A stretch of DNA of 64,000 nt from Candidatus Microgenomates bacterium (GCA_003576945.1 QEVC01000001.1:26129-90128), one strand, 5' to 3'; counted from the first letter of the stretch, positions 24,026 to 59,112 are shown. Made by a program: numbers and translations. Notes: a model not told the origin generated them from the sequence alone.

Positions 24026-24058
24026 GTAAATCCGTATAGCCGTTAATCAGTAAATCGG
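24026..24058. repeat. 8-nt periodic repeats (GTAAATCC GTATAGCC GTTAATCA GTAAATCG) filling the yidD-yidC intergenic leader
   Basis: Same motif family as the leader of yidC paralogue 1 (1058-1094). Confidence 0.6.
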
Positions 24059-24274: not shown

Positions 24275-24285
24275 GTATTTAGTAT

Positions 24286-31533: not shown

Positions 31534-31580
31534 GAATATAGTATAAAGTACCAAGTAAAAAGTACCTAGTGTATGGGATT

Positions 31581-32189
31581 TTAGTTGGAGAAGGTGTAGG
31601 TGTGGCTGTCGGGGTCGAGACCATTTTCTTTGACCCAGTCGCGGACGGCGTTTATTATTTCACCGCGTTCTTCTACTCCAACTTTGAGGGTAATTTCGAG
31701 GTGCTTTGGACTTTTGTAGAGAATGGTAAAGCCAGGCGCCTCATATGGGATTTTGTTGGCCAAAGGATAATCACGCTTGATCTCGTCGACTACTTCTTGA
31801 TTGGCGCGGGGCTCGCTCTGTTGAGGAATAGTGGTAAAAGTGAGAGTTTTGAGGGGTTGATTGTTGTAGAAAATATTAAGCGTATATTCAGTATTTACGA
31901 ACAGGTATTTTTTTGACTGGAGCTTAACAATGTTGTTGGGAGCAGAGGTAATGTCCCAAGATTCTTCGGGGATAGAGGTAACTGACAAGAGATTGGGGTC
32001 GACGGCGGTAGCAAATTTAAGCTGAATAGGCTCGAGATAACTGACTTTGGTGGCGTAATCAGAAGGGATGGTGGCGAGAAGGGTGGGGAGGGGCGTGGGT
32101 GGAGTGATAAAGAACGAGAAGATTAATAAGCCGAGAGAGATAATAGCGAGAGCAATGAGAAAGGGTTTTTTGGTTAAGAAATGGAACAT
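31581..32189 (-). CDS. N-terminally anchored extracytoplasmic protein (possible VirB8-like role)
   Basis: 202 aa with a TM at residues about 9-30. Functional assignment is inference. Confidence 0.35.
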   Translation of the reverse strand: MFHFLTKKPFLIALAIISLGLLIFSFFITPPTPLPTLLATIPSDYATKVSYLEPIQLKFATAVDPNLLSVTSIPEESWDITSAPNNIVKLQSKKYLFVNTEYTLNIFYNNQPLKTLTFTTIPQQSEPRANQEVVDEIKRDYPLANKIPYEAPGFTILYKSPKHLEITLKVGVEERGEIINAVRDWVKENGLDPDSHTYTFSN

Positions 32190-32198
32190 AGGGTTAGT

Positions 32199-35087
32199 TT
32201 AGATTTTTTTAAGACAACCAGCAACCCGACTACTAAGCCAGGTACAACCATCGGGTCCGCGGACAACCCCGTTACCACCACCATTAGCGTCGGCACAGCG
32301 GATAGTGGCGCCGCCATTGTCAATAAACACGCCGACGTGGCCATAACCACCAGTAGTCGTATCGACAAAGAAATCTCCTGGACTACAACTACCGATGCCG
32401 AGGACGGGCTTGTAGCCGGTGGGTGGGCTCGCAAGCAGAGTTTTGGCGTCGCCAAAACCAGAACCAGCACCACCATTGGCGACGTCGATCGCGCGGACAA
32501 AACCTACACATTGGAGGTAGGTGTAATTGGTGGCCGACTCTTTTAAGACAGCAATAGCGCTTTGAGCGAGAGTGCTGGCGAGGACGCACTGCCAACTATT
32601 GCCGTTTGCGTTGCTGGAGGTGAGAGGGTTAATGCCACACTTGCTTAGTATCTCAACGATACAGGCGGCAGTCTGGATGCGTGAGTTATTTTTGCCCCCA
32701 CCTTCGCCACTATCACAGAGGAGACTACCTATAAATTGACCTGCGCCGGAGTCGAGACTGAGGTTGACGTCGAGACGAGTAGTAACATCTAGATCAGAAA
32801 GGTTAGTAATATTTACAAAACTCATTACCCCAATAATTATGAGAGCGAGCATAAGCGACCCTAGAGTCAATGTAAAAACTCCACCGAGAAATATTCCCAG
32901 GCCCGTAAATATGCCAGCAAACAATCTCCCAATATTAAGGGTTGCAAGGAAGGCAGATATTGCGAGTCCCCAACCCACAACAGTTTCTCGAAACCTGCCA
33001 TCTTTAAAGAATTTTTTGAGAAAACTCCAACCCGCAGAGATTAAGTCCAGGGCAAGACTACCCACAAAGAGTACTGTGCCGATAATAGTACCAGATGAGG
33101 CGATGGCACCAATCAGCTTAGCCCCAGTTTTGGCTAAAGCCTTACCCCCAATTTTGATTAAAAAGCGGGTAGTGGCGCGGCCTGCTTGGATCCCTACGTA
33201 TTTACCAACATCTGATAGTCCGACCTTAGCAAGACTCCACTTAATGGCTTTACCCCACTGCCTACTGGCAAAAGCCGTAGTGGCTCCACCAACTGTGTGT
33301 CCGCCTAGCTCAAAATATTTGAGACCCCAGTTGATGACTGGTCTGGCAGGCTCTAGGACAACTTTCCACCCTTTATACTTGCCTGCTCCTTCTGCTAGCC
33401 ACCTAGTCGTGGTGACTTTTTTCCATTCGTCTAAGCGATCTTGGATCCAGGGGGCAATGCGAAAGAGGGGGATTTTGGTACCAGGAATTGTGACGTGTTC
33501 GGCGATTTCGTCCCATTTATCAAAAGCTCTGTGGAGAAGTTTTTTGCCTGTGATGGTTTCTTCAAAATCGATCCAGGAGTCAAGAATTTTGGTTTGAGCT
33601 TCATAAAGGCGAGATCTAGCATCAAGTACGCGGCGACCCCAGTGTGCACGGGAGATTTCGCGACGTTCAATGGGAGTTAGGCTAGTATAATAACTAAGGT
33701 CAGCATTAAGATGTCGGGCATTAATAATAAAATCAACATCGATGTTTTTGCCAGGCTTATTACTTTCTGCCTGGTAGGCATCGTAGAGGTTGTCAAATTT
33801 TGTATTATTTTTTGTGTTGTAGGCGAGGAGGAGCTGATCCTTTTTGGTACTAAGCCTCGCTTCGGTTTTGAGATATTGATGTTCATCGCGGAGAAAGAGA
33901 GTGGGATTAATACCTTTTTGAACTAGACTCCATTCGCGGCGCGTAAGACGATAGTTGTTAAGAGTTTCGACTTTTTGATTTTGGATGTACTCGAGTGAGA
34001 CGTCAAACCCTTGATTTTTGATACTGCTGCCTAGGTCGGTGAGAATAGAGGGTGAAATACTTAACTGCTGGCCAGTAAGAGTCATTAATTCATCAAAACT
34101 GCGTTTTTCGGTAGCACTACTAGTGGTAGTTTTGAGGAGAGTGGTAACAAGACGCGTTCGATCCGTTTCATTTAGGTTAGGGAGCGCGGAGGAGAGGCGA
34201 GACTTTAGCTCTGTTTCGTTTAAGAGCTGAGAGGAGAGCGAGCGAGCCGCCTCGAGGCGACGCGTTTCGTAGGTTTCGACAAACTCATTACCACCAAACT
34301 CTTTGACTATATTGTTAACAAGTTCTCTGGTTTGACGACTAGTCTTTTCTTCTTTGACGTAGGTGAGGAGGTCGGAACTTTCGGGGTAGGACTGTTTAAT
34401 GAGATCAGTTAGTTTGGAAGCTACAGCAAAATCTTTAACTTGATCACTCCCACCAGTACTCCCGGCGGCATGGAGGTCGCTTAAGTTGGCGGTTATGATG
34501 CGGGCAAACTGGGCGCGGAGGGCGGCTTCGCTAATACTGGTTCTACCTGGGGGGAGAATATCTCTAATTAATTTTTGGGGAACGACACCAGTATTTGCAT
34601 ATTTGAGGGCCTCAAAATACATTTTTGTATAGAGGTCGTACTGCTTGCCGGGGTCGTAGGAGGATGTTTTGACGATCGCCACGTCGAGTTTTTTGGCACG
34701 GAGAGCAGCGATGTTTTCGATACGCGCGGCAGTTAAGAGTTTGTTGGGATCTTGGACTTCTTTGGCAAAAATGAGAGAGGCACTACGAGCAAACTCTTCT
34801 TCACTCTTAATTCTACCCAGCTTTTCTTGATCCTCTTTGTTAATGCCCTTGACGTAGATTAAGTAGTCGAGGACGAGCTGTTTTGCTTCGGTAATGCTAA
34901 TGTATTCGGGTTCTTGCCCATTATCGACTGGGAGAGATACACCGCGGCTACCACCGACTATTTCTGCCTGGGAGGAGAGCTGCTCTAGGAGCCATTCTTG
35001 GATGAATTGGCGATTGGCGCCTTCTGACAACCCTCGGTTGTTTTTATAAAAAGTGGATTGTTGGTAGGTGATGAGTCGACGAGCCAT
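32199..35087 (-). CDS. Large membrane-spanning protein with a C-terminal CHAP-domain peptidoglycan hydrolase (VirB1/PrgK-like role)
   Basis: 962 aa: an about 650-aa N-domain without a signal peptide, 3-4 TM helices (about 660-760), and C-terminal YLQCVGFVRAI...GDFFVD...GYGHVGVFID, the Cys/His CHAP catalytic pattern. Confidence 0.6.
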   Translation of the reverse strand: MARRLITYQQSTFYKNNRGLSEGANRQFIQEWLLEQLSSQAEIVGGSRGVSLPVDNGQEPEYISITEAKQLVLDYLIYVKGINKEDQEKLGRIKSEEEFARSASLIFAKEVQDPNKLLTAARIENIAALRAKKLDVAIVKTSSYDPGKQYDLYTKMYFEALKYANTGVVPQKLIRDILPPGRTSISEAALRAQFARIITANLSDLHAAGSTGGSDQVKDFAVASKLTDLIKQSYPESSDLLTYVKEEKTSRQTRELVNNIVKEFGGNEFVETYETRRLEAARSLSSQLLNETELKSRLSSALPNLNETDRTRLVTTLLKTTTSSATEKRSFDELMTLTGQQLSISPSILTDLGSSIKNQGFDVSLEYIQNQKVETLNNYRLTRREWSLVQKGINPTLFLRDEHQYLKTEARLSTKKDQLLLAYNTKNNTKFDNLYDAYQAESNKPGKNIDVDFIINARHLNADLSYYTSLTPIERREISRAHWGRRVLDARSRLYEAQTKILDSWIDFEETITGKKLLHRAFDKWDEIAEHVTIPGTKIPLFRIAPWIQDRLDEWKKVTTTRWLAEGAGKYKGWKVVLEPARPVINWGLKYFELGGHTVGGATTAFASRQWGKAIKWSLAKVGLSDVGKYVGIQAGRATTRFLIKIGGKALAKTGAKLIGAIASSGTIIGTVLFVGSLALDLISAGWSFLKKFFKDGRFRETVVGWGLAISAFLATLNIGRLFAGIFTGLGIFLGGVFTLTLGSLMLALIIIGVMSFVNITNLSDLDVTTRLDVNLSLDSGAGQFIGSLLCDSGEGGGKNNSRIQTAACIVEILSKCGINPLTSSNANGNSWQCVLASTLAQSAIAVLKESATNYTYLQCVGFVRAIDVANGGAGSGFGDAKTLLASPPTGYKPVLGIGSCSPGDFFVDTTTGGYGHVGVFIDNGGATIRCADANGGGNGVVRGPDGCTWLSSRVAGCLKKI

Positions 35088-35135
35088 AGGCTAATTGTAA
35101 CATTGCATCTGGTGTGGTGTGGTAGAATTGGAAGA

Positions 35136-38100
35136 ATGAACAGTGGTGAGCAAGAAAGCAACAAGAAGAATAAAAAAGAGGCGGAAAAAAAGAGCCCGAA
35201 TGCCGTTGAAAGCAAGGTTTCGATCGAGGAATTGTTGTTGGTAGTATTTGCGAGAAGAAGTGTAGAACAGTTAAAGGTAACTCTTGAGAGTGGCCAAAAA
35301 ATTAGTGACGAGGCGATGAAGATGATTGTTAAAAGGGTGTCGGGAGAGATTGATAACCAGGAGCAGAAGGATTTGCTTGGATTAATTGTTAAGCAGGTTG
35401 AGGGTAAAAAAGATGAGAGAGATATGGCTCGAGACAACCTTGCAAAACTACTGCAATTGCAGGATGAGAACTTGGTGGGCAAGAAAAAAACTAGCAAAAA
35501 GAAAAATGCCAAAAGTGAAAAACCTAGTAAAGGACAAGAGACTGACGCCGAAAAACTGATTTCTTTTGTAACTAAGGACAAGAAAGACATTAATCGTGAA
35601 GGTATAAGCACAATTTGGGCTGATACCGCAAAGGAACTTGGGAGGTTAAAAGAGAAGAGTGGGGGTGATCAAATTCGTGCAATTGAGAGCGCTATACACT
35701 CTTCGATGGTGAATACCAAGAATTCAATCGAAAAAGGACTAAATGAGCCAATGTCAAAAGAGAACAAGGAAGATATCCTTAAAGAAACTAAAAATCTTTA
35801 TGACAAATACGCAGAGAAAAATCAGCGCAGAAATATTGCTAAGTTGGGGTGGAGAGAGAGACAAGATTTAAAACGTGACAATATTGTCATCGGTCGAGGA
35901 ATGAAGATAGTTAATGATTTTGTCGAAATTGCTGGAGACGAAAAGAAGGTTAAAGATCTATTCAAAAAAAAGACACAAAAAGATTATCTGGAGCTATTCG
36001 CATTTATGGATCTAATGGAAGAAAAAGCTGACACGGAAAATTTTGCGGAACTATATGAAGTTTCAAGGCGGATACAGGAATCTTGGGATCAGAATATCGT
36101 AGAGGAAACTAGGGAAAGTTCTAGGAAACTTACAGATGAAGATAGACAGGAAGTTAAGAAGCGCGTGAAGAAGCAGGAAATACCAGAGCTTGAACGAGTA
36201 GAAGACATGGTGAACTGGTTAATCGACAACAACGTTTTAAATGACGAGATGGCTAGTAGGATGAGTGAGGAGCAGATCCTAGACTTTTATCGGAACCTAA
36301 AAGATACTTTAGAGATGCGGGCTAGCGGATACTCGATTGGTGGCGGCGCTGAGCGATATCGCAATGTCGATTATGCAAAATATTTGCCAGAGCTTAATGA
36401 GGCAATAAAAAAGAAATGGCGCGAAGCAGGTCTTGATGTTGGTAAGTTGGGAGAGGCAATTCCCGACATAGAGGCAATATTGAACGGGTCGAAAGATGCG
36501 TTTGTAAATACGAATTTACCACTAGAGGCTAAAAAAATACTTGAGGATGTAATATTTCAGGAACTTTTACAGGGGGCCAGGGTTTTGGTTAGTGAGTCAG
36601 TTGATCGAAACATGATGTATTACGATAATCGGGCGACGAAATACCTCACCCTCTTAGCTTTGAGAGGACTAGATACTACCCTAAAAGATACGGTCACTAA
36701 CCACATGATATTACAGCAGTTATCTTTTGCGTGGCGCAATGGCTACGTGGATGAAGAATTGTATGGGAAAGTAATGGATTTTTGGTCGAGACAAGGACCA
36801 GAGTACCGTTTATTTGAAGAGATGAAGCGGAATGAAACGGTATTGATTAAAGACAAAGAAGGTAAAGAGGTCTTAGTTTCGCTAGAGTTAAACATGCACG
36901 ATTTTGAGGGGACAATGGCTCAGAATGTGGCAGATGAGGATAAAGAAGCGGTGGGAATGCCATTAGATATAGATAGATCCTGGGGAACTGTCGCCGCGCG
37001 GAAAACAGAAAAAGAATCAATGAAGTCTGATCGAAGAGTCCTTACTCGACGAGCCCTGATTAATAAATATGGAATAGACGAATATAATCGGTTGGCAAAG
37101 AAAGCTGGTGGAGAGGAAAACCTAGTAGGTCAAATCGTTGACAACTACGGAGATTATATAAACAGGGTATATCTTTACTGGATTGGTACAGGACGACTTG
37201 GCGAGATAGTGGGTAACGCATCGTTTGATAACAACAAGTTTGATTTACCACAAGGCATTCCAGAGTATTATATGAAACGTGATCCAAGATTGTTAGTTTG
37301 GTTTTTGTGGAAGTACACACCAGTACGAGTGCCAGAGGCGCTTTTTGGTTTAGCTCGGATGGGACTTCCCTCGTTCCATGCCGCAAACAAGGGCGAGAGT
37401 GCAGCACATTTTATAGGTACTAGAGACACAACAGAGGGCGGAGCTGGGTCACGTCGAGCGTTTTACGACAACAATAGCGATAAGTTTACCAGCGTCCAAC
37501 TAGATAAGTTTTCGGAGAAGTTTGCAAAAGTATTTAAAAAAGCATTGTATAACGATGACGAGTTTACATATAGTGAGAAGAATCCCTATTTTAAAGCGAT
37601 TTCTCACTTGCAATCGGATAAGTATAACCCCCGACGAAACAATACTGAGACTATAGATATACTATTGGGCTTTGAGGCTACTGAAAAAGATGATAACTTC
37701 TTTGAGGCAATATCTTGGGAATGGGCTAAATTACATTATTCCCACGACAAACAGCTTGTTAATTTCTTAAATTCCAAAGCTAGTGGTCGCGATAAATTTA
37801 AGTTTTTTGCTAAACGATTTAATGACGGATTCTTCTTAACGACTGCGCTTAAGGCTAAGCGGGGAGATGATGCCAAGAAATATAGATTCAACTATCAGGG
37901 CGAGGACATGAAAGCGGTTATTGAATACGCCAATAACCCCGAGCCTGAGAACTTAATGAAGATATTGTCAATTGTGGCGAGTATTGTAGGGGACGAAATT
38001 GGTGAGGCGCGTGACGCTAATCTAGAGATAGCGTATGAAATACTTAAGGAGCGGGAGGTTGGAGAGGCATTAGATGTTATTAAATATAATGGGGGGTCGG

Positions 38101-38588
38101 TGGCATTTAGTAATAAAGATTATGTCGGGGCAAATAAGGGCGAGTTCCCATTACCAGAAATGACGAAAGTTCCACATAACCCGCTTGACAAAGACATTCC
38201 CACTCATAGTACGGCGGCATATCGTGGACTAGAGCATAAAGTGTATGAGGGGGAAATGTTAATGAAGGTATTAATGCGCAATGCGAGGGCGGCTAATCTA
38301 TATAGAGACGACCATGAATATCGAGAAAAGCGAAAAGAAGCAAAATTGGAATACTTTAAGGAATCTTTACCACGACTTCATTGGGATAACAAGATTGCGT
38401 GGTACTGGAATGTTCTGAATAACGGAAAGCATTTATGGGATGTAGTGACCTTTAAGAAACTTACAAACTATATCGCGATAGAGATATTCCAATTACCACC
38501 CCACTTATTCTGGGAGTGGCTTTTTGAAAATAGTGAAAAATCATGGGAAACTACCATGAAAGTTTTTGCAGGACACGGTGGTCACTAA
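35136..38588 (+). CDS. Giant hydrophilic protein of unknown function (about 1150 aa, Lys/Glu-rich N-terminus)
   Basis: Uninterrupted ORF. The start is moved to ATG 35136 (MNSGEQESNKK). No TM, Walker or nuclease motifs recognised. Divergently transcribed from the CHAP-protein operon. Confidence 0.45.
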   Translation: MNSGEQESNKKNKKEAEKKSPNAVESKVSIEELLLVVFARRSVEQLKVTLESGQKISDEAMKMIVKRVSGEIDNQEQKDLLGLIVKQVEGKKDERDMARDNLAKLLQLQDENLVGKKKTSKKKNAKSEKPSKGQETDAEKLISFVTKDKKDINREGISTIWADTAKELGRLKEKSGGDQIRAIESAIHSSMVNTKNSIEKGLNEPMSKENKEDILKETKNLYDKYAEKNQRRNIAKLGWRERQDLKRDNIVIGRGMKIVNDFVEIAGDEKKVKDLFKKKTQKDYLELFAFMDLMEEKADTENFAELYEVSRRIQESWDQNIVEETRESSRKLTDEDRQEVKKRVKKQEIPELERVEDMVNWLIDNNVLNDEMASRMSEEQILDFYRNLKDTLEMRASGYSIGGGAERYRNVDYAKYLPELNEAIKKKWREAGLDVGKLGEAIPDIEAILNGSKDAFVNTNLPLEAKKILEDVIFQELLQGARVLVSESVDRNMMYYDNRATKYLTLLALRGLDTTLKDTVTNHMILQQLSFAWRNGYVDEELYGKVMDFWSRQGPEYRLFEEMKRNETVLIKDKEGKEVLVSLELNMHDFEGTMAQNVADEDKEAVGMPLDIDRSWGTVAARKTEKESMKSDRRVLTRRALINKYGIDEYNRLAKKAGGEENLVGQIVDNYGDYINRVYLYWIGTGRLGEIVGNASFDNNKFDLPQGIPEYYMKRDPRLLVWFLWKYTPVRVPEALFGLARMGLPSFHAANKGESAAHFIGTRDTTEGGAGSRRAFYDNNSDKFTSVQLDKFSEKFAKVFKKALYNDDEFTYSEKNPYFKAISHLQSDKYNPRRNNTETIDILLGFEATEKDDNFFEAISWEWAKLHYSHDKQLVNFLNSKASGRDKFKFFAKRFNDGFFLTTALKAKRGDDAKKYRFNYQGEDMKAVIEYANNPEPENLMKILSIVASIVGDEIGEARDANLEIAYEILKEREVGEALDVIKYNGGSVAFSNKDYVGANKGEFPLPEMTKVPHNPLDKDIPTHSTAAYRGLEHKVYEGEMLMKVLMRNARAANLYRDDHEYREKRKEAKLEYFKESLPRLHWDNKIAWYWNVLNNGKHLWDVVTFKKLTNYIAIEIFQLPPHLFWEWLFENSEKSWETTMKVFAGHGGH

Positions 38589-38618: not shown

Positions 38619-40127
38619 CTATTTTTTACTAGCAAGATCTTTTATTCCTGCCGCCATTTGTTTTTGGTAATCGAGCTGTCTTGTTGCTTCGCGTTGGTGT
38701 TCTAGGCTTGTCTTCCAGCCATAGGCTGTCTTACCTAGTGCCATGGCTCCACCTAAGCCAGCGCCGATCTCGCTGGTGTATGGAGATTCTTTGACCTGGA
38801 GCCAGTCCATCGCCATCTTGGCAGCGGCGGGGGTCATGGTAAAGATAAAGAATCCGATTAGTCCCATTAGATCGTTGGCTTGGAGATCAGTACCAGTAAG
38901 GGTGAAGGGTGGGAGCCACATCGCGCCATCGTCTCCTGTTTGAGCATAGAAAGAACTACTACTATCGATACCAAATGGATTACCATCGACACCAAAAGCG
39001 CCGGTGTTCCAGAGCGTGGATTTGGAGGGATCACCGACAAGTATGGCGGCAAAAATAAACATAGCGGCGACTACTGGGAAGGGGAGGAGATAGCTAGCAG
39101 TTTTTTTGAGCCATTCGGAGAAGGCTTTGCTACCAGGCATGGCGTTCATGAGGATTTGGATCGGAGCGGTTACTGTCTGGATAATTAACATTACATAAGC
39201 TTTGACTAAGACAAAGAGCAGCTTAATCATTGTGACTCCGAGCCAGACTGCGGCGATAAGGGCGGAGGGGGAGAAGATGGCGACCCCTTTGCCAATAAAT
39301 CCAGTTAGGCCATCACCAACACCTGAGAGGAGCCTGTCAGAGGCAGCGGCGACTGCCCAGATGACACTATTACGGCCAGAAAAGATTACACTCCACGCTG
39401 ATCCACCCAAGAGACGACTAATTGCGTCGACGGGAGTTCCAATAATACCAATAGTGCTGAGTAGATAAACCAGGAAATAGATCAGAAAATACATGATGTC
39501 GATCATAAAGCCGACTATGGCATAGCTAAAAGTGATAAGAAGGAGAGTGATTAGGAGGTTGGGGAGTGCGGCTTGGATAGTGATGACAGTCTGAGCATTA
39601 ATTTTGGTTCTGAGCATGATCATGATACCTACCACCACAAACATTACGATATAAAGTGCGTAGGCGACGTTGCGAAAACCTTTCCAGAATTCGAGAAACG
39701 GTCCCATGGCGGCATACCCAGTACCTTGAGCGTAGGCGCGTGGAGCCAGAGTGGGGAGACCAATATTGTTGGCAATGTCAGCTAGATATTGTTGACTAGT
39801 GATCCCGTTTTGAAACAGAGAAGCCACCATTTTTCCCGACTGTGGTAGGAGTGCTGCAGTATTACAATTTTTACCGCTCGCATCTTGTAATCCACCAATC
39901 ATAAGAACTGGGGTAGCGATAAGAGTAATGGGTTGGCGCCCTGGTTTGTAGTCACTCTCACCACCATCTGTTTCATATTCACTGAGATCACAGTTGCCAA
40001 CACTACCAAATTCGTATTTAAAAAGATTGTTTGGTGTATTACCAGATACATCAGAAATTGATGCATGTGTGGATTGTGGTATAGCTAAAGTAAGTATTAC
40101 ATAAGCCAGAAGGAGAAATTTTTTCAT
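38619..40127 (-). CDS. Polytopic membrane protein with signal peptide (VirB6/TrbL-like candidate)
   Basis: 502 aa with signal peptide MKKFLLLAYVILTLAIPQSTHA and at least 6 TM helices. The assignment is by position. Confidence 0.45.
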   Translation of the reverse strand: MKKFLLLAYVILTLAIPQSTHASISDVSGNTPNNLFKYEFGSVGNCDLSEYETDGGESDYKPGRQPITLIATPVLMIGGLQDASGKNCNTAALLPQSGKMVASLFQNGITSQQYLADIANNIGLPTLAPRAYAQGTGYAAMGPFLEFWKGFRNVAYALYIVMFVVVGIMIMLRTKINAQTVITIQAALPNLLITLLLITFSYAIVGFMIDIMYFLIYFLVYLLSTIGIIGTPVDAISRLLGGSAWSVIFSGRNSVIWAVAAASDRLLSGVGDGLTGFIGKGVAIFSPSALIAAVWLGVTMIKLLFVLVKAYVMLIIQTVTAPIQILMNAMPGSKAFSEWLKKTASYLLPFPVVAAMFIFAAILVGDPSKSTLWNTGAFGVDGNPFGIDSSSSFYAQTGDDGAMWLPPFTLTGTDLQANDLMGLIGFFIFTMTPAAAKMAMDWLQVKESPYTSEIGAGLGGAMALGKTAYGWKTSLEHQREATRQLDYQKQMAAGIKDLASKK

Positions 40128-40141
40128 AGATTAGTGCGATT

Positions 40142-40687
40142 TTAGCGCAGTAGGCCAAGTTTATCTACCCATTCGTTGGCGGTGACGCGGACGTAATCAG
40201 CTTGACCGTAATCAAATAGGAGTTGTTTGGGTTCGATGCCGGACTCGCGGAGGAGCTGGAGAGCTTTGGTAAAGGTCTCTTGAAAAGCCTGGAGATTAGG
40301 ATTTTTCTCGGGATCGAGCTCGTCTTTGTTGAGATAGGAGAGGCCAGTAATGTCGAGGCGCGTGAGAGAGGGCTCGGTCGGGTGAAGAGTGATGTCGATA
40401 CTAGTATCGATACCCACGGAGGTTTTGAAATTGCGCATCCTGATCGGGAGGCGATCTGCGATAAGAGTGCGGTAACTGATGGCGTTATTTACTTTTTCCT
40501 CGGTGAGATTGGTAAAGTCGGAGAAGGGGTTATTGTTTGAGGATTGTTCTTGTGGGGTGCTAACTGGCGTGGGATTAGGGGTGCGTGAACTAAAGATTAA
40601 AACTAAAAAAAGAATAATGATCGAAATAGAAACGGCGGTTAGGAGAAATTTGTTGGTAAAGAGACGTTTGGTGAGTTGTTGTAGCAT
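40142..40687 (-). CDS. N-terminally anchored small protein, paralogue of 41914-42432
   Basis: Start moved to MLQQLTKRLF... so it matches the paralogue. The shared block is NLTEEKVNNAISYRTLIADRLPIRMRNFKTSVGIDTSIDI...LSYLNKDELDPEKNPN. Confidence 0.45.
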   Translation of the reverse strand: MLQQLTKRLFTNKFLLTAVSISIIILFLVLIFSSRTPNPTPVSTPQEQSSNNNPFSDFTNLTEEKVNNAISYRTLIADRLPIRMRNFKTSVGIDTSIDITLHPTEPSLTRLDITGLSYLNKDELDPEKNPNLQAFQETFTKALQLLRESGIEPKQLLFDYGQADYVRVTANEWVDKLGLLR

Positions 40688-40704
40688 AAGATTTAGTATA
40701 CAGA

Positions 40705-41841
40705 CTAACTGAGTAGTTGTGGGAGTGTCTGGAGGGCTTGTTTGATGGGTAATATCTGAATGTTTTCGATTTTTCTTTCCCGTTCTCCGCCATAAAAGAC
40801 AAAACACTTGGCAGATGGATATTCGGAGTAAAAAGTTTTGAGACCACGTATATCTTTTAGACTCACTTTATCCGAGTGTTTGACCTCGATGGCTATTAAA
40901 CCTGAGTTGCCATATAGAATAAAGTCTACTTCTACTCCATGAGTAGTACGCCAAAAGAATACGTTGTAATCAAGCTCCAAATTTGAGACGATTGCATTTA
41001 AGTTTTGCCAGACTAAACTTTCCCAGGCTATTCCTTCGATTTCATGGGGACTGTTAAGTGGGCCACTCGGCCTAAGAGTTTGGTAGATTCCAACATCGAA
41101 GAAGTAAAATTTGTTGTGAGAAACGAGTTTTCTTTTTGATTTGTGGGTAAAGACTGGGAGACGAGATGCAACGAGCAAATCTTCGAGAATACTAAGGTAG
41201 TTTTCGACAACCTTTCGCTCGATCATTGCTTCGCGAGCGATCTCTGAGGTGTTAATCAGCGAACCCTGAGAGTAGCTTATTGTTTCGAGAAATCTTGCAA
41301 AAGCACCAATGTTGCGAGTTAATCCTTCCTGCTTTACTTCCTGGGTGAGATAGGTGTTGACATAGCTCTCGAGATATTTCTTTGGATATTTGGTTGTTTG
41401 AGTGGTGGGTAACAGTCCATATTTTACTGCCTTTTTAAAGTCAAAATCTTTGCCTAGTTCGACTGCGCTTAAGGGTAGTAGATTATAGGTGAGCGCGCGA
41501 CCTGCAAGAAGATTAACACCACTTTTTCGTAATTTGCGTGCACTACTACCAGTTAAAACAAATTGATAGTGATGTGATTCGATTAGGCGATGTACTTCGT
41601 GCAGCAATTCGGGGATGCGTTGAATTTCGTCGAGAATAACTGGACTTTTGTTGTTGAAAGGAATTATCTCATCTAGTCTGCTAGGATTGGCTACTAATTC
41701 GTTGTAAACCCTAGCCTCTAGAAGATCCAAATATAGAGCATTGGGATATTTCTGACGCACTAAAGTAGTTTTTCCTGCCCCGCGAGGCCCAAGTAGGAAG
41801 ATGCTTTCATCGCGAGGTAAAACGATATTTCTGGAATACAT
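40705..41841 (-). CDS. AAA+ ATPase, DUF4143 family
   Basis: Walker A LLGPRGAGKTTLV, plus a C-terminal domain typical of DUF4143 proteins. Confidence 0.7.
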   Translation of the reverse strand: MYSRNIVLPRDESIFLLGPRGAGKTTLVRQKYPNALYLDLLEARVYNELVANPSRLDEIIPFNNKSPVILDEIQRIPELLHEVHRLIESHHYQFVLTGSSARKLRKSGVNLLAGRALTYNLLPLSAVELGKDFDFKKAVKYGLLPTTQTTKYPKKYLESYVNTYLTQEVKQEGLTRNIGAFARFLETISYSQGSLINTSEIAREAMIERKVVENYLSILEDLLVASRLPVFTHKSKRKLVSHNKFYFFDVGIYQTLRPSGPLNSPHEIEGIAWESLVWQNLNAIVSNLELDYNVFFWRTTHGVEVDFILYGNSGLIAIEVKHSDKVSLKDIRGLKTFYSEYPSAKCFVFYGGERERKIENIQILPIKQALQTLPQLLS

Positions 41842-41913
41842 AACTCCATTTTAACCAAATATTTGGAGTTGTCAACTCCAAATATTTGCTTGTTAGTACA
41901 AATAGAACTCGAG

Positions 41914-42432
41914 TTAGCGAAGAAGGTCTAGTTGTTCTACCCAGTAGGTGGCGGTGGTGTGTATATCTGTTCGGTCGCCATAACTAAAAATGAATTGGGT
42001 AGGATCGGCACCAGACTCACGAATGAGGGATAGCGCGCGGGCGTAGCTCTCGGCAAAGGCGATGATATTGGGGTTCTTTTTAGGGTCGAGTTCATCTTTG
42101 TGAAGGTAACTTAGACCGTAGATCTCGAGACGCATGAGGGAGGGATCGTCGTCACTGAGTGAGTAAATGTTAATAGTCGTGGTGATGCCAACGCTGGTTT
42201 TGAAGTCTTTGAGATAGATTGGGAAGCGATCCTGGACGAGCTTGCGGTAGTTTATGGCATTTTTTACTTTTTCCTCTGTGAGGTTAGTTAGTTCGGCGCG
42301 GAGCTGCGTGGTCGTGGGTTCGGGTGGGGGAGAAGAGAGAGGCGGGGTGGTCTTTCGTGGGGAGATGATAAGTATGAGTATTAGGATGAAAATTGAGATC
42401 GAGAAAGCGATGATAAAGAATTTTTTATTCAT
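41914..42432 (-). CDS. N-terminally anchored small protein, paralogue of 40142-40687
   Basis: RAELTNLTEEKVKNAINYRKLVQDRFPIYLKDFKTSVGITTTINI...LSYLHKDELDPKKNPN. Confidence 0.45.
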   Translation of the reverse strand: MNKKFFIIAFSISIFILILILIISPRKTTPPLSSPPPEPTTTQLRAELTNLTEEKVKNAINYRKLVQDRFPIYLKDFKTSVGITTTINIYSLSDDDPSLMRLEIYGLSYLHKDELDPKKNPNIIAFAESYARALSLIRESGADPTQFIFSYGDRTDIHTTATYWVEQLDLLR

Positions 42433-42433
42433 A

Positions 42434-45312
<2,879 letters not shown>

Positions 45313-45316
<4 letters not shown>

Positions 45317-45600
45317 GATTGGAAGCCAAAGTTGAATTGAGTAACTGGAGCGCCGGTTAGGTTTTCGATGAGGAGGAGAATGAGCCAGGAGATAATCGCG
45401 AGGGCGAGGCCGCCGACAGCGAGACCAATAGTTTGTTTACCACCTTGTAATCCCTTGGGATCACCACCGCTCGTTAGGATTTTGAAGCCACCGACTAAGA
45501 TCATAATAAAAGCAATCATGCCAATTAAAGGGATTATGGCTGATAAAACATTGCCAAAGTAGTCTGGTAGTTGATCGAGGCGTGCGGCGTCTGAGTCCAT
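45313..45600 (-). CDS. Small two-TM VirB2/TrbC-like (pilin-like) protein, array member 1
   Basis: 95 aa: hydrophobic helix, FKILTSGGDPKG loop, second helix LAVGGLALAIISWLILLLIENLTG. The 4-nt overlap (ATGA) with the upstream gene suggests translational coupling. Confidence 0.5.
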
Positions 45601-45614
45601 GTTTGTAATTATAG

Positions 45615-45646
45615 TACAAAAACCCCGCTTACGCGGGGTTTATTGC
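45615..45646 (-). terminator. Rho-independent terminator inside the pilin-like array
   Basis: CCCCGC-TTAC-GCGGGG hairpin. On the minus strand it is followed by TTTTTG. Confidence 0.5.
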
Positions 45647-45666
45647 ATTGTTTGTAACAAAAAGTC

Positions 45667-46020
45667 TTAGTAAGCAGTTGGAGGAGTGATGTTGTCGTTG
45701 AGGATCGAGATACCAAAGAAGTATTGGATGATCAACATGACGGCCCAGGCGGAGGCGACGACGGCGAGACCGACGAGTGCAGCGGTGATACGATCGCGCG
45801 CTTCTTGGGTTTTACCTTTATCTCCACCACTAGTGATCCATTGAATACCACCCCAGATGAGGTACATAAAGACGAGGAGCGCAGAGACGAGGAGAGCGCC
45901 TTGGACGGCACCTTTGATCAACGTTCCAATATTGGTGATTGCGACGTTATCTGGCTTGCCGATTGAGAGATCTGGAGCAGCTGGTGCAGCCATAACTTTT
46001 TCAACGATTGAGAATGACAT
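45667..46020 (-). CDS. Small two-TM pilin-like protein, array member 2
   Basis: ...YLIWGGIQWITSGGDKGKTQEARDRITAALVGLAVVASAWAVMLIIQYFFGI. Confidence 0.5.
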   Translation of the reverse strand: MSFSIVEKVMAAPAAPDLSIGKPDNVAITNIGTLIKGAVQGALLVSALLVFMYLIWGGIQWITSGGDKGKTQEARDRITAALVGLAVVASAWAVMLIIQYFFGISILNDNITPPTAY

Positions 46021-46040
46021 ATTTATCTCCTTATGTATTA

Positions 46041-46069
46041 GTACTTAGTACATAGTACATGGTACATGG
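46041..46069. repeat. GTACATAG-type 8-nt periodic repeat immediately upstream of array member 2
   Basis: gtacttagtacatagtacatggtacatgg. Related copies at 22235-22250, 46811-46833 and 53188-53216. Confidence 0.5.
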
Positions 46070-46109
46070 TTATAATTCTAGTATTTCTGATTATAGCAAT
46101 AATATTAAG

Positions 46110-46454
46110 TTATTTGGTAATCCCAATACCAAAGAAGTAATCGACGAGCAGATAGACTGCCCAAGCTGAGGCGACGATGGCGAGACCAACAATTGCCTGA
46201 GTGATTTTGTTCCTGGCCTCCTCGAGCTTGCCTTTGTCGCCACCGGCAGTGATCCAGTTGATCCCGCCGTAGACGAGATACATAAACGTGGCTAGACCTG
46301 CAACCAAGATCACTGCTGAGAAACTACGTGAGACAAAGGTTCCTAGATCTTCATTAATTGCTACCCTAGACTTAACCTGATCGTCGACGTTGATCGCAAA
46401 ACTACCACCTTGGGCGGATGCAGTTTTGATTAGTTTTAAAGTTGTAAAGTCCAT
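46110..46454 (-). CDS. Small two-TM pilin-like protein, array member 3
   Basis: ...YLVYGGINWITAGGDKGKLEEARNKITQAIVGLAIVASAWAVYLLVDYFFGI. Confidence 0.5.
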   Translation of the reverse strand: MDFTTLKLIKTASAQGGSFAINVDDQVKSRVAINEDLGTFVSRSFSAVILVAGLATFMYLVYGGINWITAGGDKGKLEEARNKITQAIVGLAIVASAWAVYLLVDYFFGIGITK

Positions 46455-46467
46455 AAAGTTTTTGAAG

Positions 46468-46863
46468 CTACCCTGCGGTAGGCCAGATAATATTTAATAA
46501 ATCAAGTCCGATGGCAGACTCGATAAACTTAACTACGACGTAGCTGGCTGCTAGGACAGCTAGACCAATTAATCCCTGGGTGATTTTGGCTCTACTCTCG
46601 TCAAGTTTACCCTTGTCGCCACCAGCAAGGATCCAGTTGAGTCCACCCCAAAGAAAGTAGAGAAGGAAGGCTAGTCCACCAACAATTATAATGGTTTGCC
46701 AGAGAGTGGCCATGGTAATTGCGAATTGTTGGGGCGCACTGTCGGGTGATTCTCCACCTGGAATTGCAGTGTTGGTGATCGCGGCGCGCGCGAGAGGGGC
46801 ACGAGAAGATAGTACATAGTACGTGGTACATAGCTGGAGGAAAATGATCTGTTTAAGTTTCAT
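46468..46863 (-). CDS. Small two-TM pilin-like protein, array member 4 (with signal peptide)
   Basis: MKLKQIIFLQLCTTYYVLSS... then YFLWGGLNWILAGGDKGKLDESRAKITQGLIGLAVLAASYVVV. Confidence 0.5.
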   Translation of the reverse strand: MKLKQIIFLQLCTTYYVLSSRAPLARAAITNTAIPGGESPDSAPQQFAITMATLWQTIIIVGGLAFLLYFLWGGLNWILAGGDKGKLDESRAKITQGLIGLAVLAASYVVVKFIESAIGLDLLNIIWPTAG

Positions 46864-46865
46864 AT

Positions 46866-47228
46866 TTAATTAAAGGTTAGTCCTTGAATAAGCACGCCGG
46901 GCTCGAGGATGTTAAGACCGAGGGCGGCACTCACGATCCAGGTGATGGAGTAGGAGAGAACGATAATAATTAAACCAATGGCGCCGCCAGTCATCATGCC
47001 TTTGGCCTTGTCAATTTTGCCTTTGTCACCACCGGCAGTAATCCAGTTAAGACCTCCCAAAAGAAAGTAGAGAACAAATGCGATTCCCGCAATAACAGTT
47101 AAAACTACAAGAGTGTTACTGATTAGTTTTTCGACAGCACTAGTACTACCATCGATGCCACCACCAGGTTGATAGCCGCCGGGAGTGGTGATGGTTTGAA
47201 AATCTAAGGCTTTGACTTTGGTAATCAT
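46866..47228 (-). CDS. Small two-TM pilin-like protein, array member 5
   Basis: ...YFLLGGLNWITAGGDKGKIDKAKGMMTGGAIGLIIIVLSY. Confidence 0.5.
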   Translation of the reverse strand: MITKVKALDFQTITTPGGYQPGGGIDGSTSAVEKLISNTLVVLTVIAGIAFVLYFLLGGLNWITAGGDKGKIDKAKGMMTGGAIGLIIIVLSYSITWIVSAALGLNILEPGVLIQGLTFN

Positions 47229-47234
47229 AGGTTA

Positions 47235-47570
47235 TTAAAGACTCCCGGGGCCAGTAATACTAGGTGTTAGGATGGCACCAGCGTTGTTGAATAATAGAAA
47301 AGAGACGACACCAGTGACTGCGGCAGCGCCCACCATAATAATTAGACCAAGGAGAGACATATTGATTGAGTACATGGCCGCTTGAATTTTTTTCTCGTCA
47401 CCACCCGCGGTAATGTAGGTAAAACCAGCGATCATGAGATTGAAGAAAGCATAAAGTCCGGCGGCGGCAAAGATGACGGTAATAACATTACTCACAAAAC
47501 TGGGAAGACCGGTGTCGACGTTGCCGTAGCCGGTGATGGGACTATCGATGCTACCAAAGACGCCTGCCAT
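47235..47570 (-). CDS. Small two-TM pilin-like protein, array member 6 (divergent)
   Basis: ...FNLMIAGFTYITAGGDEKKIQAAMYSINMSLLGLIIMVGAAAV. Confidence 0.45.
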   Translation of the reverse strand: MAGVFGSIDSPITGYGNVDTGLPSFVSNVITVIFAAAGLYAFFNLMIAGFTYITAGGDEKKIQAAMYSINMSLLGLIIMVGAAAVTGVVSFLLFNNAGAILTPSITGPGSL

Positions 47571-47574
47571 AATT

Positions 47575-47877
47575 TTATAAAATCTCTAGTCCGGTGACGA
47601 TTTGGATAATTTGAATTATCCAATACGACCCGAAGACAACTAATAAACCCATTATAGCAAAAGTAATAGTTTTTTTACCCTCCTCCATCTTGTGAGCATC
47701 GCTTGCACCGCTAATTACATTAAAGCCGCCAAGAATAAACATAAAAAAAAGTACTAGTCCGGCGGCAACATAAACATTAGGAAGAATGGCGTTAATTAAG
47801 TCGCTCGCACTGCTGTAGGTGGAATCAGCACCACTACCTTGGAAAATTAGCTTTTCACCCAGATTAAAGCCAGCCAT
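47575..47877 (-). CDS. Small two-TM pilin-like protein, array member 7 (divergent), first gene of the array
   Basis: ...FMFILGGFNVISGASDAHKMEEGKKTITFAIMGLLVVFGSYWIIQIIQ. Confidence 0.45.
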   Translation of the reverse strand: MAGFNLGEKLIFQGSGADSTYSSASDLINAILPNVYVAAGLVLFFMFILGGFNVISGASDAHKMEEGKKTITFAIMGLLVVFGSYWIIQIIQIVTGLEIL

Positions 47878-47914
47878 GAAGTTAGTATAGCGTATACAGT
47901 ATAATGAATAAAGT

Positions 47915-48454
47915 ATGGATCATCTGGTAGAACAGGTATTATCAGGGCAAAAGGGAGCGGCGACGCGGTTTTACCATAAATATAGTCCGATGTTGCGGAG
48001 GTTTTTAAATGCCAAATTGCCGAGCCCGGCAGATGCCGAGGAATTGCTTCAAGACACATTTTTGTCTGTTTTTGATTCTCTGCCTCTTTATCGAGGAGAG
48101 TGTAGTGTTATTTCTTGGATTTATTCGATCGCGAGACATGAAGTGGCGGATTTTTATCGCAAGCGGTATGTACGAGAACTAGTGGAAAAAACCAACCCCT
48201 TGTTTGAAGAGCTCTTGGAGACAGTTGAAACCCCAGAAAAAGTTTGGGATAAGACTAAGGTGCGAGCAAGATTTTTTGGGGCGTACAAAAGCCTTAATCA
48301 ATCATACCAAGATGTGTTGTCGTACCGGTACGAATTATCACTGTCTGTTAAGGAGATTGCAGTGAAAATGAGACTTACTTTTAAAGCGACAGAATCACTG
48401 CTTTATCGGGCGCGAGTCGCATTTAGCCTCGCTTATAACAATTATGCAGAGTGA
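47915..48454 (+). CDS. ECF-type sigma-70 family RNA polymerase sigma factor
   Basis: Region 2 is ELLQDTFLSVFDSLPLYRGECSVISWIYSIARHEVADFYRKRY. Region 4 is YQDVLSYRYELSLSVKEIAVKMRLTFKATESLLYRARVAF. A TATAAT sits 12 nt upstream of the start. Confidence 0.7.
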   Translation: MDHLVEQVLSGQKGAATRFYHKYSPMLRRFLNAKLPSPADAEELLQDTFLSVFDSLPLYRGECSVISWIYSIARHEVADFYRKRYVRELVEKTNPLFEELLETVETPEKVWDKTKVRARFFGAYKSLNQSYQDVLSYRYELSLSVKEIAVKMRLTFKATESLLYRARVAFSLAYNNYAE

Positions 48455-48674
48455 AGCCGAATTTTTGAAAGTAATTGAGAAAAAATCTAAAGAAGAGAAA
48501 AGAGTTCTTGATACTGAGCTGATGCCTAGTTGGGCTAAGGGGATGGGGGAGTGGCTCGTGGTCAACCCGTGGCGGGTAATGGTGCCTATGGCAGGTATTT
48601 TGTATTTAGGGCTAAGAATAGTGTATGGGCAAAATTTTAGAGAGCTAATTTTGGGGTTATTTGGAGGATTTTAG
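48444..48674 (+). CDS. Small single-TM protein (possible anti-sigma factor)
   Basis: 76 aa with a TM (VVNPWRVMVPMAGILYLGLRIV). It overlaps the sigma gene by 11 nt. Inference by position. Confidence 0.3.
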   Translation: MQSEAEFLKVIEKKSKEEKRVLDTELMPSWAKGMGEWLVVNPWRVMVPMAGILYLGLRIVYGQNFRELILGLFGGF

Positions 48675-48675
48675 T

Positions 48676-48987
48676 ATGAAGAAGTCGGTTTTAGTTCTTT
48701 GGATGAGTTATGTCTGGGGGACGACGCTCGCAGGTTTGGCAATTCATCCATATCAGTCGATCAGGAGAATTGTATTAACCAAGCGAATATTATTACCAGT
48801 TACCTTGTCACCAGTACTGGGGTTAGTTGTTTTATTTGTGGTTGGGAGAGTGGGGAGCTACGTGTTTACACTTGGAGCGTGGGGAAGAGAGATGATGGCT
48901 TTGGTTTTGGGGAGCACGCTCATTGGGTTGTTGATGTGGCAAGGGTTACTACTCCTATTGGTGTGGCGTTTTTGGCGTGTGCGTTAG
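48676..48987 (+). CDS. Small polytopic membrane protein
   Basis: Start moved to MKKSVLVLW. Three hydrophobic helices. Confidence 0.3.
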   Translation: MKKSVLVLWMSYVWGTTLAGLAIHPYQSIRRIVLTKRILLPVTLSPVLGLVVLFVVGRVGSYVFTLGAWGREMMALVLGSTLIGLLMWQGLLLLLVWRFWRVR

Positions 48988-52856: not shown

Positions 52857-53249
52857 TTACCCAACAATGTCAATTTTGAAGACAACCTGGAGGATCTGGG
52901 CGATCCAGAAGGCGAGAAAGATTACGGCAAAACCAATGAGGGCGCTAGTAATAGTTTTTTTACCTTTTTCCTGGGCTTCTTTATCAGCCGCACCAGCGAG
53001 CATAGTAAAGCCGCCAGAGACGAGCATGCCAAAGAGAATAATCCCAGCGAGGGTTAGGAGCGTGGGGAGAATAGAGCTAATAATACTCCCTAGATTTCTG
53101 GTGTCGACAGATCCACCCCCAAGACCAAGGGCATTTTCGTAGGCACCGTAGTCAGCAAAGTCGGCTGCTCGTGCTTGAGGAACGAGAGTACATAGTACAT
53201 AGTACATAGTACATAGTTGAAAAGAGATATTTTTTAATTTTTTATTCAT
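52857..53249 (-). CDS. Small two-TM pilin-like protein (eighth paralogue, with signal peptide)
   Basis: MNKKLKNISFQLCTMYYVLCTLVPQARA... then MLVSGGFTMLAGAADKEAQEKGKKTITSALIGFAVIFLAFWIAQILQ. Confidence 0.5.
   Translation of the reverse strand: MNKKLKNISFQLCTMYYVLCTLVPQARAADFADYGAYENALGLGGGSVDTRNLGSIISSILPTLLTLAGIILFGMLVSGGFTMLAGAADKEAQEKGKKTITSALIGFAVIFLAFWIAQILQVVFKIDIVG
53188..53216. repeat. (GTACATAG)x3.5 tandem repeat encoding the signal-peptide core LCTMYYVLC
   Basis: Seen directly. Confidence 0.55.
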
Positions 53250-53251
53250 GA

Positions 53252-53668
53252 TCAGTTAAATCCTGGTAATTGAATGATATCACCCGCCACAATCCGAAGC
53301 AGGGTGACTGAGAAGATGATAAAGAGAAGTCCGGTAATCGCGCTAGTAAAGAGTTCTTTGCCTTTTTTTACCTGTTCGGCGTTATCGCCACCTGTCATAA
53401 TCTGGATGGTGGCAATGAGCATAATAACGAGCGAGATGGCGCCGGCGGTACCGGCGAGGAACTTGAGGAGCGAGACAGTAAAACCTTTAGTTTCAACGCT
53501 TAAACACCCAAGCGCAGTATCAACTGCGGTGTCGCCACAATCACCGTTTGGATTGATGGCGTGAGCGGGTGAGGAAAGAGCGGAAAAGGAGATTAAGACC
53601 GAAGCTAAGATGGTCGCGAGATATGTTAGGATAGAGACATGGTTTCTCTCTGGAAAAAGCTTTTTCAT
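53252..53668 (-). CDS. Secreted two-TM protein ending in IIQLPGFN (LPGF module; VirB2/TrbC-like candidate)
   Basis: Signal peptide, two Cys, then LLKFLAGTAGAISLVIMLIATIQIMTGGDNAEQVKKGKELFTSAITGLLFIIFSVTLLRIVAGDIIQLPGFN. This is homologous to the C-terminus of the 960-aa protein. Confidence 0.5.
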   Translation of the reverse strand: MKKLFPERNHVSILTYLATILASVLISFSALSSPAHAINPNGDCGDTAVDTALGCLSVETKGFTVSLLKFLAGTAGAISLVIMLIATIQIMTGGDNAEQVKKGKELFTSAITGLLFIIFSVTLLRIVAGDIIQLPGFN

Positions 53669-58654: not shown

Positions 58655-58701
58655 TCGTAAATCCGTAGAGCAGTATATCCGTTTATCTGTGTATCTCTGT
58701 G

Positions 58702-59112
58702 TGGAGACGGAGGGCAGTGAGCCCTCGTCCGGAGCGAGCTTTTAACATCATCTACATACTTGTTTAGTGTTTAAGAGTTTTACCTCTCTAAATATAGGAA
58801 ACTAACAACCAACTATTTAGCGAGGGTAGTCGTTTGTTTGGGTCTGAGCGACTAGTTCAGACTTACGGCTCATGTTTGTTTCCGCCTGTTATTTTCCCAT
58901 GAGCGAGTAGATAACGAGACGCAGAATAATTAAGCAGTGTATGCGTAATTAGCTGAACCAAAGATGGCATTTTCCATTGCTAGAAAAGCATTTTTGGCTG
59001 TCTGTACAAAAGATTTGACAGATATTTTTTGACTCTGTTTTACGACTTCTCTAGTCAAAGTCGGTATGCAGATGTTAAAGAGCGATTCGCCTCGTCAAAG
59101 CAAGACGTCCCC
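58702..59112 (-). ncRNA. ssrA: Candidate tmRNA (ssrA), convergent with smpB
   Basis: The minus strand starts GGGGACGTCTTGCTTTGACGAGGCGAAUCG (compare E. coli GGGGCUGAUUCUGGAUUCGACGGGAUU). It ends GGAC-GAGGG-CTCACTG-CCCTC-CGTCTCC-A, a T-arm plus a 7-nt acceptor 3' strand that pairs with the 5' GGGGACG, then the discriminator. About 411 nt. An open frame at nt 40-183 ends ...FGSANYAYTA-TAA and could be the tag. Confidence 0.5.

Follow-up and report, generated by a model that had tools for sequence, protein, structure and literature searches.

Arrays of pilin-like genes in type IV secretion system (T4SS) loci are common in Patescibacteria: a recent survey counts 441 arrays, each with 2-11 VirB2-like genes, across 383 assemblies, especially of Microgenomatia and Saccharimonadia (Quinonero-Coronel et al., Microb Genom 2025, PMC12102498). 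The same source relates the chromosomal T4SS of Patescibacteria to the monoderm MPF-FATA type and places it often near dnaA, dnaN and rnpA (PMC12102498). In Southlakia epibionticum, the one genetically tractable Patescibacterium, the T4SS and its predicted pilin series are essential for epibiotic life (Wang et al., Cell 2023, PMC10633639), and a 2025 review singles out this system as the one monoderm T4SS with pilins (PMC12857230). Here we describe a locus of this kind in a 64,000-nt stretch of DNA from Candidatus Microgenomates bacterium (GCA_003576945.1, QEVC01000001.1:26129-90128), hereafter the window, in which seven small paralogous genes lie in tandem at 45313-47877. The window encodes ten pilin-like modules, and these probably constitute the co-assembling subunit set of a chromosomal, origin-proximal T4SS of monoderm type.

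The locus is an ordinary array of the previously described kind and adds no new kind of system. The survey defines an array as at least two pilin genes that are in tandem or have a single non-pilin gene between them, in a Patescibacteria genome encoding VirB4; the window has seven genes in tandem and an adjacent pair, and it encodes a VirB4-like ATPase. The divergence of the copies (15-51% identity) is also that of the published arrays (mean 25%, maximum 54%; PMC12102498). The original prediction had called such amplification of a pilin-like subunit unusual for T4SS loci, which does not hold for this lineage, because arrays are common in it. The arrays of S. epibionticum ML1 (T4SS cluster SEML1_0006-0019) and Nanosynbacter lyticus TM7x share the Pfam family PF18895, the T4SS context and the array organization. 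Compared with the published Patescibacteria arrays, the present set consists of seven tandem genes, a separate gene pair and a 960-amino-acid (aa) protein with a pilin module of its own. Strict cross-species orthology, fusion evidence and leaders encoded by 7-nt repeats were not found in the available portions of those accounts, nor do accessions of this species' assemblies appear in the available supplementary text of PMC12102498.

Seven back-to-back open reading frames (ORFs) of 95-131 aa, all on the minus strand and transcribed from 47877 to 45313, make up the array. They are named p7 to p1 in the order of transcription; 'copy 1' of the original prediction is the last gene transcribed. In the following list, bit scores refer to PF18895 (T4SS_pilin; gathering score 26.6 bits), and orthologue identities to two comparison species, L001 (GCA_964527065.1) and L024 (a 964-kb JGI contig), in this order.

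47575-47877, minus strand: p7, 100 aa, first gene transcribed; 31.2 bits; orthologues at 64% (L001) and 59% (L024)
47235-47570, minus strand: p6, 111 aa, loop motif AGFTYITAGGDEKK; 24.1 bits, below the gathering score and its sole match; orthologues at 74% and 69%
46866-47228, minus strand: p5, 120 aa; 30.4 bits; identical to P0012
46468-46863, minus strand: p4, 131 aa, with an N-terminal extension; 21.2 bits; identical to P0003
46110-46454, minus strand: p3, 114 aa, the copy modelled with AlphaFold2; 36.6 bits
45667-46020, minus strand: p2, 117 aa, the most conserved copy; 34.9 bits; orthologues at 87% and 82%
45313-45600, minus strand: p1, 95 aa, last gene of the array; 23.8 bits; NCBIfam NF045849 at E = 9e-6
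53252-53668, minus strand: p9, 138 aa; 21.3 bits; E = 5e-7 with our own profile; orthologues at 66% and 70%
52857-53249, minus strand: p8, 130 aa, distant copy; 40.4 bits, the highest of all
42434-45316, minus strand: 960-aa secreted protein composed of signal peptide, large ectodomain and C-terminal pilin module, with a Cys...Cys motif

The p4 and p5 proteins are identical to proteins of a metagenome-assembled genome named Candidatus Microgenomates bacterium CPR3. Both the ORF listing and the best Pfam match of each gene, PF18895, bear out the seven consecutive paralogues, and the distant copy at 52857-53249 is real as well. The earlier total of eight was too low: p9 and the C-terminus of the 960-aa protein had been missed. 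The p9 gene lies directly upstream of p8 and encodes a Cys...Cys/LPGF-type module behind a true hydrophobic signal peptide. It has in common with the C-terminus of the 960-aa protein the motif Cys...ALGC(L/I)P and a terminal LPGF, and the two are 51% identical over 94 aa. A profile built without either protein recovers both (E = 5e-7 for p9 and 2e-9 for the 960-aa protein) and finds no module beyond those known in the six-frame translation of the window, which sets the count at ten.

In the alignment the copies vary at the N-terminus; next comes a hydrophobic helix whose last residues read GG-x-x-W/Y-I-T-A/S-GGDKGK, followed by a charged turn and another helix. The loop GG(I/L)(N/Q)WI(T/L)(A/S)GGDKGK is clear in four copies, p2-p5, while p1, p6 and p7 have degenerate versions of it. 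Near-identity of copies does not extend beyond the loop motif: pairwise identities are 15-51%, and the longest DNA repeat in the array spans 161 nt at only 70%. There are no conversion tracts between copies, and recent gene conversion, considered as a candidate process, is ruled out by the length and low identity of this best repeat.

PF18895 is the best match for all ten modules, five of which, including four of the seven array genes, score above the gathering threshold. In the remaining five (p1, p4, p6, p9 and the 960-aa protein) the scores are 14.6-24.1 bits, with PF18895 still the best or only match. The same family is matched by 51 of 51 aligned relatives, and among 1.84 billion cluster representatives searched with a profile, 76,950 relatives were found at E <= 1e-3; the family is therefore very large. 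Hydropathy reveals two hydrophobic segments in each copy. An AlphaFold2 model of p3, based on the 51-sequence alignment, consists of a helix at residues 24-69, a turn at GGDK and a helix at 74-108, with the predicted local distance difference test score (pLDDT) above 90 for residues 41-100. All ten modules belong to one family of two-helix hairpins with a conserved GGD-K/R-rich turn. The proposal that these are T4SS-associated pilin-like proteins is upheld by the PF18895 matches, the predicted hairpin and the neighbouring VirB4, TrsD, PrgI and CHAP genes; profile searches gave no confident match to an unrelated family. Curators of Pfam and NCBIfam both treat the family as pilin-like.

The likeness to VirB2/TrbC holds for topology and not for membership in PF04956. 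Similarly to VirB2/TrbC and F TraA, the window proteins are small, have two helices joined by a short charged loop and are encoded in a T4SS cluster with VirB4; as in classical pilins, some copies carry cleavable-looking leaders ending in AxA. Unlike VirB2/TrbC, they have a monoderm host, occur as many paralogues instead of one gene, mostly lack a true signal peptide and display no detectable similarity to that family. PF04956 is not matched at E <= 0.1 by the ten window proteins, nor at E <= 1 by the 51 relatives. An hhalign comparison of the family with a 30-sequence alignment of Agrobacterium-type VirB2, a shallow alignment with 52-78% identity to its seed, gave a probability of 1%, and no similarity was found to the single Agrobacterium VirB2 (query taken from pTiC58). 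Given this shallowness, a remote homology to VirB2 may exist. The family profile has no match among PDB sequences. Type IV pilus pilins offer no better relation, as there is no N_methyl or pilin Pfam match, two helices are present rather than one, and no prepilin-like leader is found.

A related family is NCBIfam NF045849, to which belong Mbov_0395 and MMCAP2_0565 from integrative and conjugative elements of Mycoplasma. Seven of the ten modules match nearly the whole 80-position profile (E 1.4e-7 to 0.01). The best score, 31.1 bits for p8, lies under the curated threshold of 40 bits; the modules of the window are thus related to NF045849 without being equivalog members. These matches point to a link with monoderm MPF-FATA-type elements. 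Mbov_0395 likewise lies beside VirB4 in an element of this type, but as a lone gene of a mobile element it differs from the chromosomal array described here.

Both comparison species keep a sigma factor gene, the seven pilins, a protein of ~900 aa and the separate p9-p8 pair. All paralogues pair off one-to-one with positional orthologues, in unchanged order, at identities of 59-87% as against 14-57% off the diagonal. The whole set is old and has been preserved gene-for-gene, its order retained in three species. Each copy is apparently under purifying selection, as judged from dN/dS (the ratio of non-synonymous to synonymous substitution rates) of at most 0.22 where computable, a rough figure with dS saturated. 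Ten contigs of the same species, obtained from different samples, have identical gene lengths in the array. Among relatives, neighbouring paralogues occur as natural fusions: P0326 and P0329 join p5-like and p4-like modules, and P0001 and P0002 join p9-like and p8-like modules, with the order of the modules matching the gene order here in both cases. Ordered orthology and fusions of neighbours therefore favour a co-assembled subunit set over antigenic variation, and the heteropolymeric filament, one of the options offered in the original prediction, is the best fit to this evidence.

The other option offered there was that the paralogues form a repertoire of alternative pilins, used singly or in changing mixtures to vary the cell surface or match hosts. 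Quinonero-Coronel et al. raise it too in their paper, where virB2 paralogues of Bartonella and Anaplasma are cited as precedents (PMC12102498), and the high divergence of the copies agrees with it, as does the concentration of variability in the N-terminal, presumably exposed, parts. We regard such a repertoire as very unlikely for this locus. Apart from the orthology, the selection apparent on each copy, the fusions and the constancy among contigs, it is opposed by the lack of conversion or recombination tracts and by the operon-like packing of genes in one direction with spacers of 2-13 nt; no invertible elements or silent cassettes were seen. The precedents themselves differ on the description given in that paper: several divergent tandem pilin genes lie in the T4SS locus of Bartonella and Anaplasma phagocytophilum as well, but these are PF04956-type genes of diderm bacteria, thought to serve antigenic or host-receptor variation (PMC12102498), whereas the set in the window is fixed and orthologous across species.

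The spacing of the array genes suggests how the co-assembling set may be expressed. The p7, p6, p5, p4 and p3 genes are separated by the 2-13 nt spacers. The p3-p2 spacer is 89 nt long and holds the sole canonical Shine-Dalgarno sequence of the array (AAGGAG), and the 66-nt p2-p1 spacer contains a hairpin with a T-run and a TATAAT box; the p1 stop codon overlaps the start of the 960-aa gene (ATGA). The relevant elements are as follows.

47915-48454, plus strand: extracytoplasmic function (ECF)-type sigma factor gene with Sigma70_r2 and r4_2 matches; with an overlapping 76-aa ORF it forms a pair spanning 47915-48674
47884-47889, minus strand: -10-like box TATACT, 6 nt before the p7 ATG, a putative leaderless-type promoter signature
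46090-46098, minus strand: extended -10-like sequence TGCTATAAT between p3 and p2, perhaps an internal promoter of p2
45618-45641, minus strand: intrinsic terminator-like hairpin, CCCCGC-GTAA-GCGGGG followed by a T-run, between p2 and p1
45608-45613, minus strand: TATAAT box, 7 nt before the p1 ATG; a -10-like box is kept upstream of the orthologues

The terminator proposed within the array is real and follows the sixth of the seven genes. A consensus terminator scan missed this hairpin; folding confirmed it, the 66-nt spacer reaching -21.8 kcal/mol (z = -5.3). The tight-loose-loose-tight spacing and the Shine-Dalgarno sequence at p2 are kept in L001 and L024, and the arrangement CGCTATACT-N6-ATG upstream of p7 is kept in all three species. 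At 15 of the 53 gene starts in the window (21 of 53 if a deviation of 1-2 bases is allowed) there is no Shine-Dalgarno sequence and a TANNNT box ends 6 nt upstream of the ATG, whereas a rough estimate from base composition gives about one in 53 by chance, so leaderless transcripts look common in this genome. A further example of such a box lies in the 29355-29360 region.

The sigma factor gene, the 76-aa ORF and a 108-aa membrane ORF (47915-48987) diverge from the array at a distance of 37 nt from p7, and the arrangement of the sigma factor is kept in L001, L024 and all same-species contigs. We infer from its position that the ECF sigma factor is a candidate dedicated regulator of the array. 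Two transcription units can be envisaged: the first would begin at the leaderless promoter before p7 and extend to p2, where expression would be boosted and transcription would end, and the second would start leaderless at p1, possibly under the neighbouring sigma factor. The p2 product is likely the major subunit: no other copy is as well conserved, and its gene lies between two spacers, with a Shine-Dalgarno sequence of its own in front and the terminator directly behind.

Assembly of the proposed subunit set might proceed as follows. Each hairpin would be placed in the cytoplasmic membrane so that its two termini face outward and its charged turn faces inward; a yidC gene lies at 23281-24018. 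The VirB4 ATPase would then drive their co-assembly into one heteromeric filament or tube crossing the wall towards a host cell. The paralogues would be used together and not as alternatives, p2 as the major and the others as minor or structural subunits, a division that we infer from sequence features. Translation of p1 would be coupled to translation of the 960-aa protein, and the pilin module of the latter would hold its large ectodomain in the assembly. The machine probably serves interaction with a host and not conjugation, to judge from the analogous case of Southlakia epibionticum, whose epibiotic growth requires both the pilin series and the T4SS.

Several observations weigh against a co-assembled filament. 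We know of no pilus or filament seen for any Patescibacteria T4SS, and the name 'pilin' reflects topology and context. L001 and L024 have longer spacers behind p2 and lack the terminator there, and the saturation behind the dN/dS values weakens the argument from selection. A further difficulty comes from polyproteins with 2-16 tandem modules among the relatives (P0322, P0324, P0358, P0409 and others), with examples of 6 modules in 552 aa and 16 modules in 1775 aa. Most of these have no obvious cleavage sites between modules, and polyproteins of 6-16 modules are hard to square with extraction of subunits from the membrane one by one. Some fusions do contain an AxA-type site between modules, such as ...PRAYA-Q in P0001, and polyproteins may accordingly be processed.

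Uncleaved polyproteins would suit a membrane-embedded hetero-oligomer of fixed stoichiometry—a ring, a channel wall or a stalk—better than an extracellular pilus. The preserved gene order in fusions and the lack of demonstrable homology to VirB2/TrbC are in keeping with such a structure, and so is the scarcity of VirB6 homologues in Microgenomatia reported in PMC12102498. We nonetheless judge it distinctly unlikely: a 502-aa polytopic protein encoded at 38619-40127 is a candidate that could be a VirB6-type channel, the AxA-type site in P0001 admits processing of polyproteins, and curators of both databases read the family as pilin-like. Also unlikely is a bolder arrangement in which all ten modules are invariable components of a single hetero-oligomeric tube or ring with defined stoichiometry, which other Patescibacteria would make as one polyprotein containing up to 16 hairpins. 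Were it true, the Patescibacteria T4SS 'pilus' would be a pre-patterned, membrane-rooted conduit, unlike the homopolymeric lipid-bound pili of VirB2/TraA. The fixed orthologous set, the p2 candidate, the pilin-module anchor of the 960-aa protein and the fusions could serve as starting points for structural and genetic studies of the way in which a monoderm assembles a T4SS-associated filament or conduit.

The pilin module of the 960-aa protein occupies ~42437-42670, its last ~75 residues, and ends in LPGF; it matches PF18895 at 14.6 bits. Homologues of the protein number 81 at E <= 1e-5, those with names belonging to Microgenomates/Woesebacteria, and 28 of 36 sampled homologues contain the PF18895 module (best E 3.6e-7). 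The AlphaFold2 model (mean pLDDT 70.5) ends in the same kind of hairpin as p3, with helices 883-915 and 920-954. The ectodomain has no Pfam or PDB sequence match, and Foldseek returned only hints at E = 2-7 to g-type lysozyme, SltB1 and MltE; we make no claim of a wall-hydrolase role on such values. In L001 (11640-11960) an in-frame TAG, at a position that is a Tyr codon in the window, separates the repeat-encoded signal peptide from the conserved body of the orthologue; the gene may be a pseudogene or be translated by read-through, or the TAG may be a sequencing error.

N-terminal leaders are present, as had been noted for some copies, but in p4 and p8 they are weakly hydrophobic, and 7-nt tandem repeats encode them. 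Four repeats lie in or near the pilin genes (h-region, the hydrophobic core of a leader).

53187-53217, minus strand: (ATGTACT)x4.4, encoding the h-region of the p8 leader; found by Tandem Repeats Finder (TRF) and translation
46809-46833, minus strand: decayed 7-nt repeat, encoding part of the p4 N-terminal extension
46039-46070, minus strand: decayed non-coding ATGTACT repeat in the p3-p2 spacer
45259-45291, minus strand: (TTCTACT)x4.7, encoding the h-region of the 960-aa signal peptide; 100% match in TRF

Repeats of period 7/8 are in excess in the window, with five found as against none in 30 simulations; none of period 5, 6 or 9-11 were detected. The orthologues in L001 use different 7-nt units (CTCTATA, ATACTCT, TTTCCTC and TTCCTAT), and some orthologues are leaderless: p3 of L024 starts with MAGSF, and p8 of both L001 and L024 starts with M(P/A)EF, the mature N-terminus. 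Leaders of this kind are therefore gained and lost over short evolutionary times. Tandem repeats with unrelated units also recur in the p3-p2 spacer; in L024 the spacer before the p2 orthologue (10659-10718) holds (CTTGATAAA)x3 where the window has the decayed 7-nt repeat.

A repeat unit that is not a multiple of three, placed within a leader-coding region, brings to mind phase variation, in which slippage of the 7-nt repeats in p8, p4 and the 960-aa gene would switch expression or the signal peptide on and off. The precedent is Neisseria opa, with CTCTT coding repeats in the leader-peptide region (PMC3960869). As in opa, the repeats here are short, pyrimidine-rich and located in the part encoding the hydrophobic leader core; the excess of period 7/8 and the different units at orthologous positions in L001 could be taken in the same sense. 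Unlike opa, the tracts have only 3-5 units and display no copy-number polymorphism in the contigs examined. Compared between consensus assemblies, the tract lengths do not vary: p8 has 28 nt in 11 of 11, p4 is identical in 10 of 10, and the 960-aa gene has 33 nt in three of three other contigs, a T-to-C substitution being the only change in p8. Repeat-number polymorphism was likewise not found in same-species contigs or in pattern scans of metagenome and genome collections. Several Logan contigs stop at the 33-nt tract, most likely because assembly breaks at the repeat. A leader of the LSTFYFLLS type recurs with point changes in homologues of the 960-aa protein at 50-76% identity, which looks like slow decay and not rapid slippage, and similar repeats are found inside rnpA and a Wzy-like gene. 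Given the invariant tract length and the persistence of the leader in distant homologues, phase variation is not supported, and we consider it exceedingly improbable.

Other 7/8-nt repeats in the window lie at 22226-22251, 24524-24553, 24275-24296, 21813-21838, 24026-24056, 1062-1092, 1711-1777, 19766-19800 and 31540-31570. Repeats of this class in the window have 3-5.6 copies; several encode hydrophobic stretches, among them the leader cores named above, a transmembrane-like stretch of a Wzy_C-type ORF and part of rnpA, and others lie just upstream of start codons.

The array belongs to an origin-proximal T4SS locus of monoderm type, adjacent to dnaA and dnaN, with FATA-type components represented by PrgI, TrsD and Mycoplasma/CD1110-type matches to the VirB4 N-terminus. 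Among the ORFs scanned there is no VirB5, VirB7, VirB9, VirB10, relaxase or coupling protein. The neighbouring genes are listed below.

23281-24018: yidC
24286-24633: rnpA-like ORF, read by eye from the ORF translation
24920-26266, plus strand: dnaA, TIGR00362 DnaA at 465 bits
26509-27609, plus strand: dnaN, read by eye from the ORF translation
27606-29540, minus strand: VirB4-like ATPase (Pfam/NCBIfam)
29710-30348, minus strand: TrsD-like protein (NCBIfam)
30502-31554, minus strand: PrgI/VirB3-like protein (Pfam), with a probable true start at 31533
31581-32189, minus strand: Big_5 protein (Pfam/NCBIfam)
32199-35087, minus strand: 962-aa polytopic CHAP-domain protein (Pfam)

An AAA_14/DUF4143 ATPase gene (40705-41841) is situated between two roughly similar paralogues at 41914-42468 and 40142-40807, each with one transmembrane segment and a conserved C-terminal domain. 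A single gene of this type, without the ATPase, is found in L001 and L024. The 40142-42468 region looks like an insertion and an old duplication within the T4SS cluster. A 1176-aa Lys/Glu-rich ORF with no Pfam or NCBIfam match (35058-38588, plus strand) lies in the middle of the cluster on the opposite strand, and counterparts of 1093-1097 aa occupy the equivalent position in L001 and L024. The window also contains a transfer-messenger RNA gene (58699-59112, minus strand; RF00023, 88.5 bits), the sole Rfam family detected in it.

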